From positions 1-37,863 of the IMG/VR virus record IMGVR_UViG_2684622552_000004: a stretch of DNA of 37,863 nucleotides; one strand, given 5' to 3'. The stretch comes from a virus. Its lineage: Duplodnaviria; Heunggongvirae; Uroviricota; Caudoviricetes. The notes beneath the pieces were generated by a model, which saw only the letters and a program-made list of their open reading frames with translations, was not told the DNA's origin and did no database searches. Shown here one piece after another: positions 23,794 to 33,313 of this stretch (position 1 is its first letter; every line of letters starts with the position of its first letter). Both the position numbers and the translations under genes were made by a program.

Positions 23794-24236
23794 GCCGCCC
23801 TCCCTTTTCGTTGTGACCATTCATACTCTCGCCGGGAGTCATCACTCCACCGCACGTTGCGCTCTGAGCCGAACCAAAACATGATTTCGATAAGCTCAGT
23901 CATGCTGGCCTTTCGCATTTTGCTGGTACGCACGCCAAGCATGACAACGCCACCGTCGATACCAGGAACACTTCGTTGCTCCAGTTTTTTGGTCTTAAGC
24001 CACAGGGCAGTGAACAGGTCTTTCCAGTCTTCCGGTGCAAGCCGTTGACCATGCCATAGCACCTGACGCGAAACATCGTTCAGCATCGGCCACATACGGT
24101 CATTCTGCGCTTTGCTGCGTTTGGGTTCTTTAAGGTGGACTTCGTGGGGTGACTTGTCGTCGATGGGAAGTGAGAGTATTGCGTCTATGGCGTTATTTCT
24201 GATTGCTTCGTTGCGAAGCATGTATATTTGCTTCAT
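23790..24236 (-). CDS. ninB: NinB (Orf-family recombination mediator)
   Basis: 148 aa with ...[22 protein letters not shown]...WKDLFTA...[10 protein letters not shown]...AA resembling lambda NinB (...LWACLGDVSRQVEWHGRWL...WSDEARLALEW...RAA). Confidence 0.8.
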
Positions 24237-24522
24237 CGAAATTCTTCTCTTTAATTCCAGCGGCTCTGATAGCTTTCATCACTGCAATTACCGTTTTGTC
24301 CTTCCCATCCTCATGCCCCATCGCATAAGCACCTTCTTCACCATCTTTCCAAAAGTCGTCATTCGATTCTGGCCAGTCGATATCCAGTTCAATAGCTGCT
24401 CGCGATGCCTGCCATGCCTCCCATGCAATCTCGACCTTGATGTGCATAATCTTCATCACGTCACTTGAAACGTGATATTTGTTTTTAAACCATTCTTCAA
24501 ACTGCTTTCTTGATTCGTCCAT
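24193..24522 (-). CDS. Hypothetical acidic protein
   Basis: About 109 aa from ATG 24522 (MDESRKQFEEWFKNKYH...), SD GGAGAGG upstream; no recognised domain. Confidence 0.45.
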   Translation of the reverse strand: MDESRKQFEEWFKNKYHVSSDVMKIMHIKVEIAWEAWQASRAAIELDIDWPESNDDFWKDGEEGAYAMGHEDGKDKTVIAVMKAIRAAGIKEKNFDEANIHASQRSNQK

Positions 24523-24533
24523 ATTCCTCTCCA

Positions 24534-24743
24534 TCACCGCTTGAACCAGGTGAAATTAGTAAACTGTGACATGCTTATGCCCATCAGACGCTTAAGCACC
24601 CTGTCTCGCGGGCTTCTCTTTGGCTTAGGCCTGCGATTGTATCGCTCTATAATCGGAAGTCTTGAGGCTTTCCAGTAGCGATAATGCCGTGCGCCTGACT
24701 CTTCCAGGTCTGCATTAATCAATTGAGCCAATGTACTCATCAT
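24534..24743 (-). CDS. Hypothetical basic protein
   Basis: About 69 aa from tandem ATGs at 24743/24740 (MMSTLAQLINADLEESGARHYRYW...), SD GGAGAGGA upstream; Arg/Lys-rich. Confidence 0.45.
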   Translation of the reverse strand: MMSTLAQLINADLEESGARHYRYWKASRLPIIERYNRRPKPKRSPRDRVLKRLMGISMSQFTNFTWFKR

Positions 24744-24807
24744 TCCTCTCCAACAGCGTGCTGGGTTGTTAGTTAAGTGGCGTAAACGTGTAATCTTCAT
24801 CGTTACC

Positions 24808-25014
24808 TCAACTCACAAAACGCCACGCCATTTTTGCTACAGCGACAGGCGCAACACCGATAATCACCCACATGAGAATGCTACCGAAAAGCACACCCAC
24901 CATGTCTTTACCTTCGCCTACCAACCGGACAAAACTGCTGGCAACCACAATGAACGTCGCCACCATCCACATAGCACCGAGAATCCTCAATGCAGAAAAA
25001 ATCAACTCAACCAC
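24808..25014 (-). CDS. Small membrane protein (2 predicted TM helices)
   Basis: 68 aa, hydrophobic throughout (MVELIFSALRILGAMWMVATFIVVASSF...VLFGSILMWVIIGVAPVAVA); GTG start preceded by strong SD GGGGGAGGG. Confidence 0.5.
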   Translation of the reverse strand: MVELIFSALRILGAMWMVATFIVVASSFVRLVGEGKDMVGVLFGSILMWVIIGVAPVAVAKMAWRFVS

Positions 25015-25090
25015 GATTTACCCTCCCCCAAATAAAAAGGCCTGCGATTACCAGCAGGCCTGTTATTAGCTCAGTGATGTAGATGGTCAT
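25007..25090 (-). CDS. 27-aa hydrophobic peptide, translationally coupled to helicase gene
   Basis: MTIYITELITGLLVIAGLFIWGRVNRG; ATG overlaps the helicase stop (TGATG). SD AAGGAGGA is formed by the last helicase codons (KKKGGF). Below the ORF-track size cutoff. Confidence 0.35.
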   Translation of the reverse strand: MTIYITELITGLLVIAGLFIWGRVNRG

Positions 25091-26526
25091 CAGAATCCTC
25101 CTTTCTTCTTGGACTGCGGTTCCTCGCGTTCACGGCGGCGCATTTCAGCAGACTGTTGGTCTGTGTCATAAATAGCGCCATTTGCCTGAATGCAATACAC
25201 CGTGCCGGTATTGCCATGACGATTGAGACGAAGGATTAGTTCGGTTTCACCAGGTGGAACACTGTCATCAAAAGCACCTTCACGATGGATCCCCACCCAA
25301 TAATCGCAATCCTGCTCAATCTGCCCTGTATCTCGTGAGTCACTTGGTAGTGGGCGTTTATTGGTTCGGCTTTCCAGTGCGCGGTTAAGCTGCGTCAGAA
25401 GCACAACAACGCAATCAAGCTCTTTGGCAAGGTTCTTCAGTCCTTTGGTGATCATGCCGTAAGCAAGGTCGTTGCGATCGGCCTTCTCAGCGGTCATTAG
25501 TGTCAGGTAATCGACCAGAATCATGCCAACACATCCTTTTTCTCGCTTGATTCGACGGCTTTCGCTGACGATTTGAGCCAGAGATAATCCCGGCGTGTCG
25601 TCGATGTAAAGCATGTCGATTTCACTCAAGCGATTGGCTGTTTCGATCGCCCTGTTGAAGTCACCATCGTAATCACCCTGATAGCCGTCATCAGCGTCAT
25701 TTGTCGCCGGAAGGTAAAAAATATTCGGGTTAACACCTGACTTCTGTCCTACCAGTTTTTCCAGTATCTGGTCACCGGGCATTTCAAGGCTGAACATCAG
25801 AGCGGGCTTTTTCTCATGCACTGCGCAGTTGATTGCCATCTGGCTGTATAGCGTCGTTTTCCCCATCTTAGGGCGAGCGCCAATGACAAACAGAGAGCCT
25901 TTCACCAGACCTTTCGGTGACAGCATCCTGTCCAGCGATGGGATCCCGGTGCTCATTCCTCGTTGTTCGCCTGACGGGTCAAATCGCTTCTCAAGGTCGC
26001 TAACCCAGTCTTCCATGACCTCACCAAATGAGCGAAGGCCGCGACGCGATCCGGTTTTTGCATGGTCTGTCAGTTGCGTGAAAATCGACTGAATAGCTTC
26101 GTACTTCTGCGTTGCAGTCATTCCGTTGCGGGAATAGAGCAATTCCGTCGCTTCAGTCATGCGGTTGATGGCGTAGCGTTCCATTGCGGTTTCACGAACC
26201 TGCATTGCATAGGCAACGATGTTTGCTGCGCTTGGCGTGTTCTTTGCGATCTCAGCGATATAAGCAAAACCGCCAATAGACGCCGTTAACGATTTACGCT
26301 CCAGTTCATCGAAAAGCGTCAGGCCATCTACTGGCTTTTGCTCCCGGTGCATTCTGGTTATCTCTTCGAAAAGGATTTTGTGTGGTCGGCTGTAAAATGA
26401 ATCAGGCTTCAGCATCGCCAGAACTTTCTGGACGCGCTCACTGCTGTCATCATCCAGAAGCAATCCACCAATCACTGCCTGCTCTGCCTCGATGCTATTG
26501 GGCGGCGCATAAAAATTATCGGTCAT
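25090..26526 (-). CDS. Replicative DNA helicase, DnaB family (P22 gene 12-like)
   Basis: Walker A GARPKMGKTT, DnaB-like ...FSLEMPGDQILEKL... and C-terminal RecA-like motifs; start at ATG 26526 with SD GAGGGTG. Confidence 0.9.
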   Translation of the reverse strand: MTDNFYAPPNSIEAEQAVIGGLLLDDDSSERVQKVLAMLKPDSFYSRPHKILFEEITRMHREQKPVDGLTLFDELERKSLTASIGGFAYIAEIAKNTPSAANIVAYAMQVRETAMERYAINRMTEATELLYSRNGMTATQKYEAIQSIFTQLTDHAKTGSRRGLRSFGEVMEDWVSDLEKRFDPSGEQRGMSTGIPSLDRMLSPKGLVKGSLFVIGARPKMGKTTLYSQMAINCAVHEKKPALMFSLEMPGDQILEKLVGQKSGVNPNIFYLPATNDADDGYQGDYDGDFNRAIETANRLSEIDMLYIDDTPGLSLAQIVSESRRIKREKGCVGMILVDYLTLMTAEKADRNDLAYGMITKGLKNLAKELDCVVVLLTQLNRALESRTNKRPLPSDSRDTGQIEQDCDYWVGIHREGAFDDSVPPGETELILRLNRHGNTGTVYCIQANGAIYDTDQQSAEMRRREREEPQSKKKGGF

Positions 26527-27406
26527 CGTGTTCACCCTCACGAACTTTCAGGTAGGTATTGTCGTTAAGCAGGAAATCAAATCCCTTTTTGTGCCAGACG
26601 GTTCCACGTTGATGGTTTGGACGCTCTTCGAACATCCATCGGCAATTTTCGCCTACGTAGCTCAAATAATTTCTCCAGTCCTGCATCGTGAACCCATGCC
26701 CGTCAAGCTGGCGGGTTATCACTCCGGCTTTGCGCCAGAACGTTCGGATCTGGTTTTTACGCTTGTCATTCAGTGCGCGGATTTTTGGCGCTTCAGGAAG
26801 GATTTCGTGGTAAGCATCGACAACATCCTGACAGCTAACGGAAGGTTTTTTCTTGTCAGACTTTTTGTCTGCTGCGGTACTCTCTAATACGTCAGTATTA
26901 GAGATATTATTTATATTATTGTTTATGGACAACCGTTGGACAACCGTTGGACAATCTCCGCTGAGAGCCGCGCCATTACTGGTGTTTGCGTTGGACAACC
27001 GTTGGACACCCGTTGGACAATTTTTTGTCTGAAAATCGTCATATTTAACGATTGTAAACAGGCTAAATTTCTTCCCCATCGAGCAAATATTAAGCATCCC
27101 TTTCGACTCAAAAGTCCGCAATAAGCTCCGAACTTTGTTGTCGGGGATGAATGTTTCTCTGACCAGCGACGGGCGTCCAGTTATCATCTGACCGCGATCA
27201 ACAGTTATCGGACCGATATCCGTATTGACGACAGTAGATTCGTGATTAGCCTTGAGGATTAAGTGAAGCCAAAGATGTACTGCCTGAGAGTCCTTATAGA
27301 GCCTGCTGTCCATAAACTGGCGGTGTATAGAGACATACCCCATACTGGATGCCTCCTGATGTTGTACAGGGTTATGCCTGTAATCAGCTAACTTAACGAC
27401 GCCCAT
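26516..27406 (-). CDS. Replication initiation protein (lambda O / P22 gene 18-like)
   Basis: Position between cII and helicase; the gene contains direct-repeat iterons plus an AT-rich tract, as lambda O contains ori. Start ambiguous (27406 or 27343, both with good SD). Confidence 0.75.
   Translation of the reverse strand: MGVVKLADYRHNPVQHQEASSMGYVSIHRQFMDSRLYKDSQAVHLWLHLILKANHESTVVNTDIGPITVDRGQMITGRPSLVRETFIPDNKVRSLLRTFESKGMLNICSMGKKFSLFTIVKYDDFQTKNCPTGVQRLSNANTSNGAALSGDCPTVVQRLSINNNINNISNTDVLESTAADKKSDKKKPSVSCQDVVDAYHEILPEAPKIRALNDKRKNQIRTFWRKAGVITRQLDGHGFTMQDWRNYLSYVGENCRWMFEERPNHQRGTVWHKKGFDFLLNDNTYLKVREGEHDDR
26922..27075. repeat. Putative replication origin: 11-bp iterons CCGTTGGACAA plus AT-rich region
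   Basis: Copies at 26933-26943 and 26944-26954 (perfect, tandem), 26988-26998 and 26999-27009 (one mismatch each), 27010-27020 (perfect), partial copy at 26926-26932; followed by TTTTTTGTCTGAAAATCGTCATATTTAACGATTGTAAACA. Confidence 0.7.
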
Positions 27407-28276: not shown

Positions 28277-28993
28277 ATGGAAAATAAAAAATCACTGACG
28301 ACAGAACAGCTCGAAGACGCTAAGCGGCTTAAGGCTTTGTATGAGTCAAAAAAGAAAGAATTGGGAATAACCCAATACTCAATCGCTGATGAACTGGGTA
28401 TCACCCAAGGAGCGGTAGGGCATTATCTTAATGGCAGAAACGCGCTAAACGTTGAGGTTGCATCTGGTTTTGCACGACTGTTGCAAGTCTCAATTGCTGA
28501 TTTTAGCCAGTCAATTGCTGCCAAGGTTGCAGAACAGGCAGAAAGCCTTAAGAGCGATGCCAACGTAAGGTATGCAGGGGAATACAGAGCAGGAAAGAGG
28601 TATCCGGTGTTAAGCAGTATCCAGGCTGGCTCGTGGTGTGAAGCATGCGAACCATACACCATTAAAGACATAGATGTTTGGCTTGAGTCTGACGCGCATA
28701 TTCAAGGTAATGCGTTTTGGCTTAAAGTGGAAGGTGATTCAATGACGGCACCGGTTGGGTTAAGCATTCCAGAGGGAACATTCGTTCTTTTCGATACCGG
28801 AAGGGAGGCGATCAACGGCAGCTTGGTCATAGCAAAACTTTCTGACTCTAACGAAGCAACATTCAAGAAGCTGATAATCGACGGCGGAAATAAATACCTC
28901 AAGGGACTTAATCCTGCATGGCCTCTCGTGCCAATCAATGGAAACTGCAAGATTATAGGCGTTGCAATTGAGACAAAACTAAGGCTGGTTTGA
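28277..28993 (+). CDS. cI: cI-type repressor (HTH plus S24 LexA-like autopeptidase domain)
   Basis: N-terminal HTH (QYSIADELGITQGAVGHYLNG), C-terminal S24 domain with GDSM serine motif and conserved Lys (FKKL); divergent from cro across the operator region. Confidence 0.9.
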   Translation: MENKKSLTTEQLEDAKRLKALYESKKKELGITQYSIADELGITQGAVGHYLNGRNALNVEVASGFARLLQVSIADFSQSIAAKVAEQAESLKSDANVRYAGEYRAGKRYPVLSSIQAGSWCEACEPYTIKDIDVWLESDAHIQGNAFWLKVEGDSMTAPVGLSIPEGTFVLFDTGREAINGSLVIAKLSDSNEATFKKLIIDGGNKYLKGLNPAWPLVPINGNCKIIGVAIETKLRLV

Positions 28994-32125: not shown

Positions 32126-32414
32126 TAAGCGTGAAATATCGCAAATAATCGCAAGTTTTACTGATGAAGATTACGAGCGAATCAACAGTGAAGTTGATCG
32201 CCTCTGCAAACGTTGCGACCCAATAAGCGAAATGCTTCGCTCATATAAACCAGATGAACACACTAAGGACGCTATCGACTGGCTGGAAGATGATGACTGT
32301 AACTATCAGGAAAAAGCCGCTGAATGGTTCTGGGATGCAATAACCGAAAGAGTTAAGGCTGAATATGCCTTCGCAATATTTAAACGCAGACACATTTTTG
32401 GAGAAGCTGCATGA
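32103..32414 (+). CDS. Hypothetical protein upstream of recT
   Basis: 103-aa ORF ending 4 nt into recT (stop overlaps ATG); no recognised motif. Confidence 0.5.
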   Translation: MMILTLNDKREISQIIASFTDEDYERINSEVDRLCKRCDPISEMLRSYKPDEHTKDAIDWLEDDDCNYQEKAAEWFWDAITERVKAEYAFAIFKRRHIFGEAA

Positions 32415-33313
32415 GCAATATCGTTGAATTCGTTAAACAGCAAGAGCAGTTATTCTGCGGAGCATTGACTGAACAGACGGTGACATGGGCTAAGGAAAGC
32501 CAGTTTGCAATTCAGTATTTCCAGAAAAACGATTACCTGGCTAAAACAGCACTGGCAAATCCAACCAGCGCACAGAACGCCATCATCAATGTTGCGGCGA
32601 TCGGCATCACCTTAAACCCGGCCAGCAAACTGGCTTATCTGGTTCCTCGCGACGGCATGGTGTGCCTTGATATCAGTTACATGGGATTACTTCACCTTGC
32701 ACAGTCGACAGGATCAATTAAGTGGGGGCAATGCAAACTGGTGTACTCAAACGACACCTATGAATCAAACGGCCTTGATTCAGCACCAACCCACAAATAC
32801 AACGCATTTGGTGAGCGAGGCTCTATTGTTGGTGGTTATTGTACGGTTAAAACAGCAGATGGTGACTACCTCACTGAAGAAATGAGTCTGGCAGAAATTA
32901 AAGCTGTGGAAGCAACGAGCAAGGCAAAGAATGGACCGTGGAAGACATTCTGGGAAGAGATGGCGCGTAAAACAATAGTTAAACGCGCAAGCAAATACTG
33001 GCCTAAAGCCCAGCGACTGGATAATGCCATTCACCTGCTTAACGAAGATGAAGGTATGCATCAGGAACCAGTTATGCCGCACAAATCAGAGGAAGATATC
33101 CGCGAAGATGAACGGAAACGCCAGCAGGAAATTATGGAAAAAGCACAACTTCTTTGTGATGAAATGGCTCAGGCAGAAAACATGGATGATTTGAAGCGAT
33201 ATTTTGCAGAAGCATATCGCTTGACATCTGGAATGAAATTGCAGCAGAACGTACAAGCCATTTACGCAGAATGCAAAGCGAAACTGGAGGTTGCCAGTGA
33301 GCAAACTGTATGA
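32411..33313 (+). CDS. recT: RecT-family single-strand annealing recombinase
   Basis: NGPWKTFWEEMARKTIVKRASKYWP matches the E. coli RecT motif NGPWVTHWEEMAKKTAIRRLFKYLP; SD GGAGAAG. Confidence 0.85.
   Translation: MSNIVEFVKQQEQLFCGALTEQTVTWAKESQFAIQYFQKNDYLAKTALANPTSAQNAIINVAAIGITLNPASKLAYLVPRDGMVCLDISYMGLLHLAQSTGSIKWGQCKLVYSNDTYESNGLDSAPTHKYNAFGERGSIVGGYCTVKTADGDYLTEEMSLAEIKAVEATSKAKNGPWKTFWEEMARKTIVKRASKYWPKAQRLDNAIHLLNEDEGMHQEPVMPHKSEEDIREDERKRQQEIMEKAQLLCDEMAQAENMDDLKRYFAEAYRLTSGMKLQQNVQAIYAECKAKLEVASEQTV

Follow-up and report, generated by a model that had tools for sequence, protein, structure and literature searches.

A lambda-type tR2 terminator overlaid by the ninA frame, and a gene for a predicted two-helix membrane protein, at the replication/nin junction of a lambdoid prophage

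The window considered here, i.e. the whole 37,863-nt stretch of DNA that was analysed, harbours the minus-strand early-right (pR) operon of a P22/lambda-like prophage, in which the order of genes is CI, Cro, CII, O-like, DnaB-like helicase, ninA, orf68, DUF7301, NinB and, further on, Q. This placement follows from the identification by Pfam of CI, Cro, CII, the helicase, NinB and Q, and agrees with the early-right location proposed in the first-pass annotation for the two small frames behind the helicase gene. What the locus represents is the ordinary boundary at which the replication genes of a lambdoid prophage meet its nin region; its features are as follows.

28277-28993, plus strand: CI-type repressor (Pfam)
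28176-27976, minus strand: Cro (Pfam)
27954-27589, minus strand: CII (Pfam)
25090..26526, minus strand: DnaB-like replicative helicase of the P22 gene 12 / HK022 P type (Pfam DnaB_C 2.8e-60, DnaB 8.6e-31)
25097..25101, minus strand: Shine-Dalgarno (SD) sequence GGAGG for ninA, within the last helicase codons (..K K G G F *), 6 nt ahead of the ATG
25007..25090, minus strand: ninA, 27-codon ORF (MTIYITELITGLLVIAGLFIWGRVNRG; phrog_5907, E=1.3e-18)
25030..25061, minus strand: intrinsic terminator tR2, top match of the terminator scan and identical to that of lambda
25021..25029, minus strand: SD sequence GGGGGAGGG, directly 3' of the U-tract, serving whichever gene comes next, here orf68
24808..25014, minus strand: orf68, GTG start, 68-aa predicted two-helix inner-membrane protein (phrog_1165, E=4.1e-36)
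24534..24800, minus strand: next gene, 88-aa DUF7301 protein (Pfam PF23975 6.3e-27, phrog_1785)
24236-23790, minus strand: NinB (Pfam)
21721-21203, minus strand: Q antiterminator (Pfam)

The helicase gene is likely to start at ATG 26526 (the mechanical ORF reaches a GTG at 26541), and its homologues in HK75 and HK620 are 1437 nt long, with an 11-nt overlap with the O gene. Its stop codon (TGA, 25092..25090) shares its A with the ATG of ninA (25090..25088), which yields the TGATG overlap (25092..25088) on which the 27-aa ORF had been said to start, and the GGAGG at 25101..25097 is indeed contained in the final helicase codons and precedes this ATG by 6 nt. The ninA frame ends on a TGA (25009..25007) that falls within the first three codons of orf68, so that its stop and the GTG of orf68 (25014..25012) define an overlap of 8 nt (GTGGTTGA). 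The strong SD sequence and GTG start ascribed to the 68-aa gene are likewise present, GGGGGAGGG (25029..25021) lying at a 6-nt spacing from the GTG at 25014. The DUF7301 gene, which is of interest here only as context, begins 7 nt past the orf68 stop codon and has its own GAGG. No promoter-like site was found on either strand between 24.8 and 25.1 kb.

Judged by its sequence, the 27-codon ORF is the NinA frame long familiar from lambda-like phages and named in 1982. It matches the phrog_5907 profile over residues 1-26 of 27 positions (E=1.3e-18), homologues are found by tblastn in 393 phage records at a coverage of at least 80%, and it bears the name ninA in the curated records of P22, HK620, L, Sf6, Lahn1/2 and HK630. 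The records in which ninA is annotated also carry a terminator inside the ORF, labelled 'tR2' or 'similar to phage lambda'. At the DNA level, ninA corresponds to the block that fills the ren-ninB spacer of lambda (lambda 40,567-40,647; NC_001416 locus positions 1168-1245), and the block of the window (ATGACCATCTACATCACTGAGCTAATAACAGGCCTGCTGGTAATCGCAGGCCTTTTTATTTGGGGGAG), when set against lambda 40,567-40,635, differs by one synonymous base over its first 68 nt, the lambda counterpart reading ATGACCATCTACATTACTGAGCTAATAACAGGCCTGCTGGTAATCGCAGGCCTTTTTATTTGGGGGAGAGG. The frame was described by Kröger & Hobom (1982), and the activity of its initiation site was reported more recently (Li et al., 2016; PMC4824070). 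Scans of Pfam, NCBIfam and PADLOC returned nothing for ninA, whose sole family match is a PHROG with no assigned function. The idea that the 27-aa ORF is a hidden new peptide must therefore be abandoned because it is the NinA frame known since 1982, laid over tR2, while the statement that it is missed by standard ORF calling is half right: the NCBI pipeline leaves it unannotated in E. coli genomes, but curated phage records do call ninA. The likeness to lambda extends to the hairpin and U-tract, which are identical, to the slot in the pR operon between the replication module and the nin genes, and to the overlapping stop and start codons on both sides. What differs is the partners. Upstream, the frame follows a DnaB-type helicase gene here (TGATG) and ren in lambda (ATGA), whereas downstream it precedes orf68 here (GTGGTTGA, 27-aa NinA) and ninB in lambda (ATGA, 26 aa).

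The terminator lying inside ninA has an 8-bp stem with six G-C pairs (AGGCCUGC / GCAGGCCU, 25061..25038), an 8-nt loop (UGGUAAUC) and a U-tract (UUUUAUUU, 25037..25030). This hairpin with its tail (AGGCCTGC-TGGTAATC-GCAGGCCT + TTTTATTT, 25061-25030) was the best terminator of the region in a consensus scan; it folds at -15.7 kcal/mol (z=-4.2), and none of 200 shuffled sequences was equally stable. Hairpin and U-tract are identical to lambda tR2 (NC_001416, around 40,596-40,627), the label 'tR2' is present in the records of HK620, Sf6, Lahn1/2, HK75 and P22, and the position is that of the pR operon site between the replication genes and ninB/Q, with Cro, CII and the helicase before it and NinB and Q after it on the same strand. 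No family was found when the entire window was scanned with Rfam, in which tR2 has no entry. Li et al. (2016; PMC4824070) used lambda tR2 as a 'well-studied' terminator, and its maximal efficiency in their work was about 0.9. The main control on tR2 is N-type antitermination. The established role of the block of about 75 nt, which begins on the helicase stop codon and is conserved in lambdoid phages as a 'ninA/tR2 boundary block', is transcription termination, as shown for the identical lambda sequence and, by analogy, presumably in this prophage as well. The presence of tR2 within the 27-codon ORF escaped the first reading of the sequence. Roughly half of the hydrophobic residues of NinA are set by this terminator.

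Whether ninA is translated was approached by comparing the block across 176-194 instances, drawn from annotated phages and IMG/VR contigs and most of them retrieved by a search demanding an exact stem match; the same terminator 28-mer is found in 182 of the 189 IMG/VR instances. The block is nearly invariant between wholly different flanks. At least seven unrelated genes serve as upstream partners, including lambda ren, two helicase types, a toprim primase-helicase, BTP1_044 and two others, and the upstream junction always falls exactly at the ninA start codon in the form TGATG, ATGA or TAAATG, this start being GTG rather than ATG in nine instances. Each upstream gene provides a GGAG-type SD sequence (GGGG in one context) 6-8 nt ahead of the ninA start. 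On the downstream side there are ten junction types (lambda-type ninB, three orf68 subtypes, orf90 and five other genes), and in all ten the stop codon of the ninA frame overlaps or abuts the next start, at -4, -8, -14 or 0 nt, the junctions reading ATGA, GTGA, TAAATG, GTGGYTGA, ATGGTTAA or consisting of a 14-nt overlap. Alternative frames do likewise in only 3 of 20 cases, which corresponds to P ~0.004 when seven junctions are counted as independent, with the reservation that junction types may share ancestry. Departures from this pattern are confined to individual sequences that carry indels or a premature stop. The SD sequence GGGGGAGGG belongs to the conserved block ahead of eight of the ten downstream junction types.

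A second line of evidence comes from variation within the frame. In codons 2-10, which lie outside the hairpin, nine synonymous and five non-synonymous alleles were counted, against an expected synonymous share of 24% (P=0.0016; the test counts few alleles, 14), and the non-synonymous changes are all conservative (I/V, I/M, T/A, T/N). The other two frames of the same codons show no synonymous excess. The few stem variants in the sample create G-U pairs and are also synonymous. Moreover, in HK97 and HK544 (gp56 and HK544_048, respectively) the first 32 nt, the position and the coupling are those of ninA in the window and a hairpin and U-tract again lie in the ORF, but the stem-loop is an unrelated one of equal length (GGGGCUAU...GUAGCCC; -13.2 kcal/mol, z=-4.0), and the frame stays open to give a 32-aa product that overlaps the next gene by 14 nt. 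In reporters carrying the lambda sequence, the NinA initiation site 'is not weak', and silencing either its ribosome-binding site or its AUG restored expression of the upstream reporter, which was attributed to the loss of non-stop translation on tR2-terminated mRNA; NinA translation cut tR2 efficiency by only ~10% (Li et al., 2016; PMC4824070). Translation of ninA is therefore well supported, by these comparative signals together with one reporter study of the lambda sequence, and the conserved junctions indicate that its coupling on both sides is selected. The coupling geometry noted in the first-pass annotation thus holds well beyond the window, since the stop/start overlaps and the SD sequence in the upstream gene are conserved across unrelated neighbours. 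The check set beforehand, conservation in relatives, gave a clear answer too: both frames are kept in hundreds of phages and prophages, which argues that neither is there by chance.

These observations outline a model in which the most likely role of ninA would be that of a translational bridge over an N-controlled terminator, a role that we infer from the conserved geometry. At the RNA level, tR2 would stop, after the replication genes, those pR transcripts that lack modification by the phage N-type antiterminator, and the downstream orf68, nin genes and Q would therefore be delayed-early. On antiterminated transcripts, ribosomes leaving the helicase gene would re-initiate at the overlapping ninA AUG, translate through the hairpin and stop inside the first orf68 codons (GUGGUUGA), beside a strong SD sequence, so that an unbroken 'chain of interlinked genes' would cross the terminator with no untranslated gap. 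On transcripts ending at tR2, ribosomes would stall at the 3' end and be rescued by tmRNA, since the ninA frame has no stop codon there; in a reporter, the NinA start halved upstream expression, which was attributed to non-stop rescue (Li et al., 2016; PMC4824070). In the same study the ninA ORF affected termination only slightly, which speaks against bridging. The hydrophobic core of NinA (GLLVIAGLFIW) would be largely dictated by the hairpin and U-tract, and the peptide probably has no function of its own. The product of orf68, in turn, would be made after antitermination in lytic growth and then insert into the inner membrane. As a whole, this explanation (a tR2 terminator, a bridging ninA frame and an accessory membrane-protein gene) is held with good confidence.

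Other readings of ninA start from the same facts. The suggestion that NinA is a functional micro-protein, i.e. a single-pass membrane peptide of 24-32 aa, toxic or regulatory, whose coding sequence doubles as tR2, draws on the synonymous excess in codons 2-10 with its purely conservative replacements (9 vs 5, P=0.0016), on the HK97-type variant, in which the hairpin is swapped yet the encoded hydrophobic core again ends in LF(I/Y)W, and on the resemblance to a short membrane anchor of the stretch I3-W21 followed by R23 and R26 (GRAVY 1.14). The excess and the retained hydrophobic peptide are indeed a hint that the NinA peptide sequence itself may be under selection, something that the bridge model does not need. 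However, 11 of the 27 residues are set by the hairpin and U-tract, those past the U-tract vary freely in sequence and in length (24 to 32 aa), and no family or defence-model match exists beyond a PHROG with no assigned function. In addition, the whole nin region is dispensable, as seen with the nin5 deletion and with P22 delta-ninA-ninH strains. A further argument comes from an HNH-endonuclease cassette of ~690 bp that sits between ninA codon 11 and the stem in several prophages with at least three different upstream genes: the insertion replaces ninA after about codon 11 yet keeps tR2 and the SD sequence, which argues that the peptide is dispensable. A functional micro-protein is accordingly rated as improbable. 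(A hairpin-less 34-aa 'third NinA variant' (MTIYITELIAGLSLLMVLTVYIIKYILYANKKTN), which at first seemed to speak for a selected membrane peptide, proved to be the left-hand junction between ninA and the HNH-endonuclease cassette, and was rejected as evidence because its hydrophobic extension is AT-rich insert DNA.) At the opposite extreme, the 27-codon ORF might be a meaningless by-product of a block kept only as a terminator and recombination 'boundary sequence', which would fit the near-invariance of the block between completely different flanks, the Sf6 record, where it is named 'bsq6; boundary sequence', and a chance of ~30% that a random frame stays open for 27 codons. This is very hard to sustain, since it leaves unexplained why seven unrelated upstream genes end on the ATG/GTG, each with a GGAG-type SD sequence, why in ten of ten junction types the end of the frame coincides with the next start, why variation is codon-periodic and why the initiation site has measurable activity.

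Between these extremes, the main role of ninA translation could be to tune tR2 and the fate of the early mRNA: coupled helicase ribosomes would melt the hairpin and allow N-independent read-through, while a stop-less ninA on terminated mRNA would lead to tmRNA-dependent decay and less expression of the replication genes. The upstream stop codon lies ~27-29 nt before the hairpin, just at the distance (alpha = 27 nt) under which tR2 is repressed by ribosomes, expression of the upstream reporter is halved by the NinA start, an effect attributed to non-stop rescue (Li et al., 2016; PMC4824070), and the start/stop overlaps are strictly conserved. Nevertheless, ninA translation lowered termination by only ~10% in the reporter (PMC4824070), and read-through is already accounted for by N-type antitermination, which leaves tuning as the main role rather unlikely. 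Comparison with the leader-peptide attenuators (pyrBI, trp and the constructs of Li et al., 2016) is instructive here, because they too have a short translated ORF over an intrinsic terminator, such that the position of the ribosome could affect the hairpin; unlike them, ninA/tR2 has no alternative antiterminator structure and no regulatory codons, and the effect of the ribosome is ~10%. More speculatively, ninA/tR2 might be a dual-coding element, selected both at the RNA level, as an N-gated terminator, and at the level of translation, for a 24-32-aa peptide or for ribosome passage. It might then act as a coupling sensor at the replication/nin boundary, as a tmRNA-decay mark on tR2-terminated transcripts or as a membrane micro-protein, all of which are possible, although dual coding as such is considered doubtful. 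The translational bridge is preferred for ninA.

The second frame, orf68, matches phrog_1165 over its full length (1-68 of 68, E=4.1e-36). Members of this family, such as ST64T orf69, phage L orf69, HK75_43, Stx2 phage 86 orf69/70 and WP_021529410, are full-length matches that share the GTG start and the place behind tR2, and with 84-100% identity to many E. coli/Salmonella prophage proteins there is no substantive difference between them and the protein of the window. In a large protein database, 197 close relatives were found in Escherichia and Salmonella, all named 'hypothetical', and 529 of 5,426 complete E. coli genomes (~10%) carry the gene. An exhaustive HMMER search of 1.84 billion representatives returned only 16 cluster representatives, so the family is a narrow one, with no characterised relative among them. 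Distant homologues of 63-66 aa are found in the early regions of other phage-like contigs. The fetched loci contain three subtypes, all of exactly 68 codons, and out of 52 unique sequences 50 begin with GTG and one with ATG. Between subtypes dN/dS is 0.26-0.38 with dS>1. Within the closest subgroup the separation is not clean (pN/pS 0.49 vs 0.32 in the control frame +1), and the coding argument consequently rests on the between-subtype comparisons and on the conservation of ORF length. Only the sense frame is always open at this locus; two plus-strand antisense ORFs (89 and 65 aa) over orf68 were dismissed as the usual mirror of a Leu/Val-rich sense frame, with stops in relatives. The neighbourhood of the gene is variable: orf90 sits between tR2 and the orf68-family gene in phages L, ST64T and BTP1, and in HK75 the orf68-family gene is directly followed by ninB, which shows that orf68 is a separate mosaic module. 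Finally, the position of orf68 downstream of tR2, in an operon under repressor control and with no promoter-like site close by, implies that its product should appear only once antitermination has taken place during lytic growth.

That the 68-aa product is a two-helix membrane protein, as first read from the sequence, is well borne out by prediction. Its GRAVY is 1.49, hydropathy plots of the three subtypes show two hydrophobic blocks around G-E/D-G-K-D, and AlphaFold models a helical hairpin (helices 2-33 and 38-67, mean pLDDT 90.5) with a short loop, GEGKD, in which G-x-G-K-D is conserved. The presence of K61 and R65 at the C-terminus would give an N-in/C-in topology by the positive-inside rule. 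A C-terminal motif, W49-x3-G53-x2-P56-x4-K61-x2-W64, is conserved, and W16, W49, G53, P56, K61 and W64 are invariant even in relatives with 29-37% identity, which suggests that the functional surface is formed by the second helix together with its cytoplasmic end. On comparative grounds, orf68 is a genuine, non-essential accessory gene for a conserved, predicted two-helix inner-membrane protein.

What this protein might do is less easily read from its relatives. Scans of Pfam (E<=1), NCBIfam and PADLOC gave nothing beyond a PHROG with no assigned function, neither Foldseek (PDB and BFVD) nor a profile search of PDB sequences yielded anything significant or more than generic helical hairpins, and no study of orf68 was found in literature searches. 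The most likely proposal, made with low confidence, is that it acts by binding a host or phage inner-membrane component. This was ranked above a function as toxin, holin or exclusion protein because orf68 is not part of the lysis cassette, shows no holin features and has no match among toxin or defence models. Nevertheless, the idea of a membrane-damaging or gating protein, whether holin-/pinholin-like, a depolarising toxic peptide or an Imm-like block of the entry of superinfecting DNA, deserves consideration, because a 68-aa protein with two transmembrane helices and a predicted N-in/C-in topology is what is seen in class II holins (pinholin S21-68) and in T4 Imm-type proteins, and because orf68 would be expressed in the lytic programme. 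The resemblance ends there: no sequence or profile similarity to these proteins was found, orf68 is in the nin region whereas the lysis cassette (holin-/endolysin-sized ORFs) lies near 20.6-19.3 kb, and there is no charged C-terminal tail, only K61 and R65. No holin, Imm or defence family was matched in Pfam, NCBIfam, PHROG annotation or PADLOC, and the structure searches were uninformative. Tests specific to each class pointed the same way, with neither a place in the lysis cassette nor a holin model match for a class II holin or pinholin, no match to Pfam Imm_superinfect (E<=1) for a T4 Imm-type protein and, for a type I toxin or small defence protein, no PADLOC match, no Rfam family in the window and no promoter-like site at 24.8-25.1 kb. 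Moreover, orf68 cannot protect the lysogen, because it lies behind tR2 in the repressed operon. A membrane-damaging role is thus judged unlikely, and the notion that the two small frames encode toxic or regulatory peptides found no backing in defence models, Pfam, NCBIfam or Rfam.

The finding as a whole is correct and mostly ordinary. The gene orf68 is an already annotated member of an uncharacterised family, which makes the protein a reasonable, though not urgent, target for small-protein studies. For ninA, a supposed hidden toxic micro-peptide is among the best-studied terminators in molecular biology, overlaid by a frame named in 1982, and it is worth bearing in mind that standard pipelines annotate neither tR2 nor ninA in prophages. 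The overlaps kept with no fewer than seven upstream and ten downstream mosaic partners, the synonymous bias and the hairpin swap that keeps the frame provide a modest reason to look for a function of NinA translation or of the peptide. Although tR2 and NinA have both long been described and are not new, they illustrate that lambdoid early genes are tightly chained across mosaic partners.

In every context among the ~190 related loci, the mosaic junctions at either end of a ~75-nt block (window 25007-25090) coincide exactly with start and stop codons; the block holds ninA, the 27-codon ORF lying between the helicase gene and orf68, and also the lambda-type terminator tR2. The block is almost without variation across these loci while its flanks are unrelated, and in the Sf6 record it carries the label 'boundary sequence' (bsq6).

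On the orf68 side, conservation is uneven within the gene itself, which encodes a two-helix membrane protein of 68 aa. In the family alignment, the window-type and HK620-type proteins agree almost completely over their C-terminal 20 residues (WVIIGV.PVAVAKMAWRFVS), whereas the N-terminal 48 residues share just ~50% identity. This contrast could reflect either a recombination break within the gene or a far stronger constraint on helix 2. Beyond orf68, the chain of genes runs on along the minus strand (24193-24800). These neighbours, together with the ORFs facing orf68 and the one occupying the position of the replication initiator, are as follows.

Features of the window around the ninA/tR2 block
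24766-25069, plus strand: a pair of long ORFs of 89 and 65 aa, antisense to orf68
Start 7 nt past the orf68 stop, minus strand: 88-aa DUF7301 protein
GTG/ATG start overlapping the DUF7301 stop (GGTGATGG), minus strand: 114-aa phrog_343 ORF, whose other end overlaps the ninB start
26516-27406, minus strand: 296-aa ORF at the O / gp18 position

The antisense frame across orf68 is open in some relatives and has gained stops in others; these ORFs were rejected as a gene, since they look like the usual mirror of a Leu/Val-rich gene. As the Pfam match of the DUF7301 protein begins only at residue 21, the protein may in fact start at the internal Met-Met (residues 20-21). A Pfam scan at E<=0.001 gave no match for the 296-aa ORF. 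Two near-repeats occur in its sequence ('...CPTGVQRLSN / CPTVVQRLSI...'); origin iterons in the DNA may be their counterpart.

The block itself is interrupted in some relatives by an AT-rich HNH-type endonuclease cassette of ~690 bp, which sits inside ninA after codon 11 and ahead of the tR2 stem, with its TAA stop 1 nt upstream of that stem.

Loci with the HNH cassette in ninA
L025, 1256-1980; also L037, L063, L084, L092, L169 and L198 (related loci)
HK022 (AF069308), 32244-33301; likewise E. coli SCU-109 (match H46)

Because the same cassette is found downstream of at least three unrelated upstream genes, the conserved ninA/tR2 block appears to be its homing target.

A different kind of change is seen in HK544 (L210, 601-699), where the first 32 nt of the block are unchanged and the terminator hairpin is wholly different (GGGGCUAU-loop-GUAGCCC, -13.2 kcal/mol), the length being equal. 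This variant, common to HK97 gp56, IME10 and the Stx2c phage Stx2_5044, leaves the ninA frame open (32 aa) and is a natural 'hairpin swap' in which structure and reading frame are both kept.
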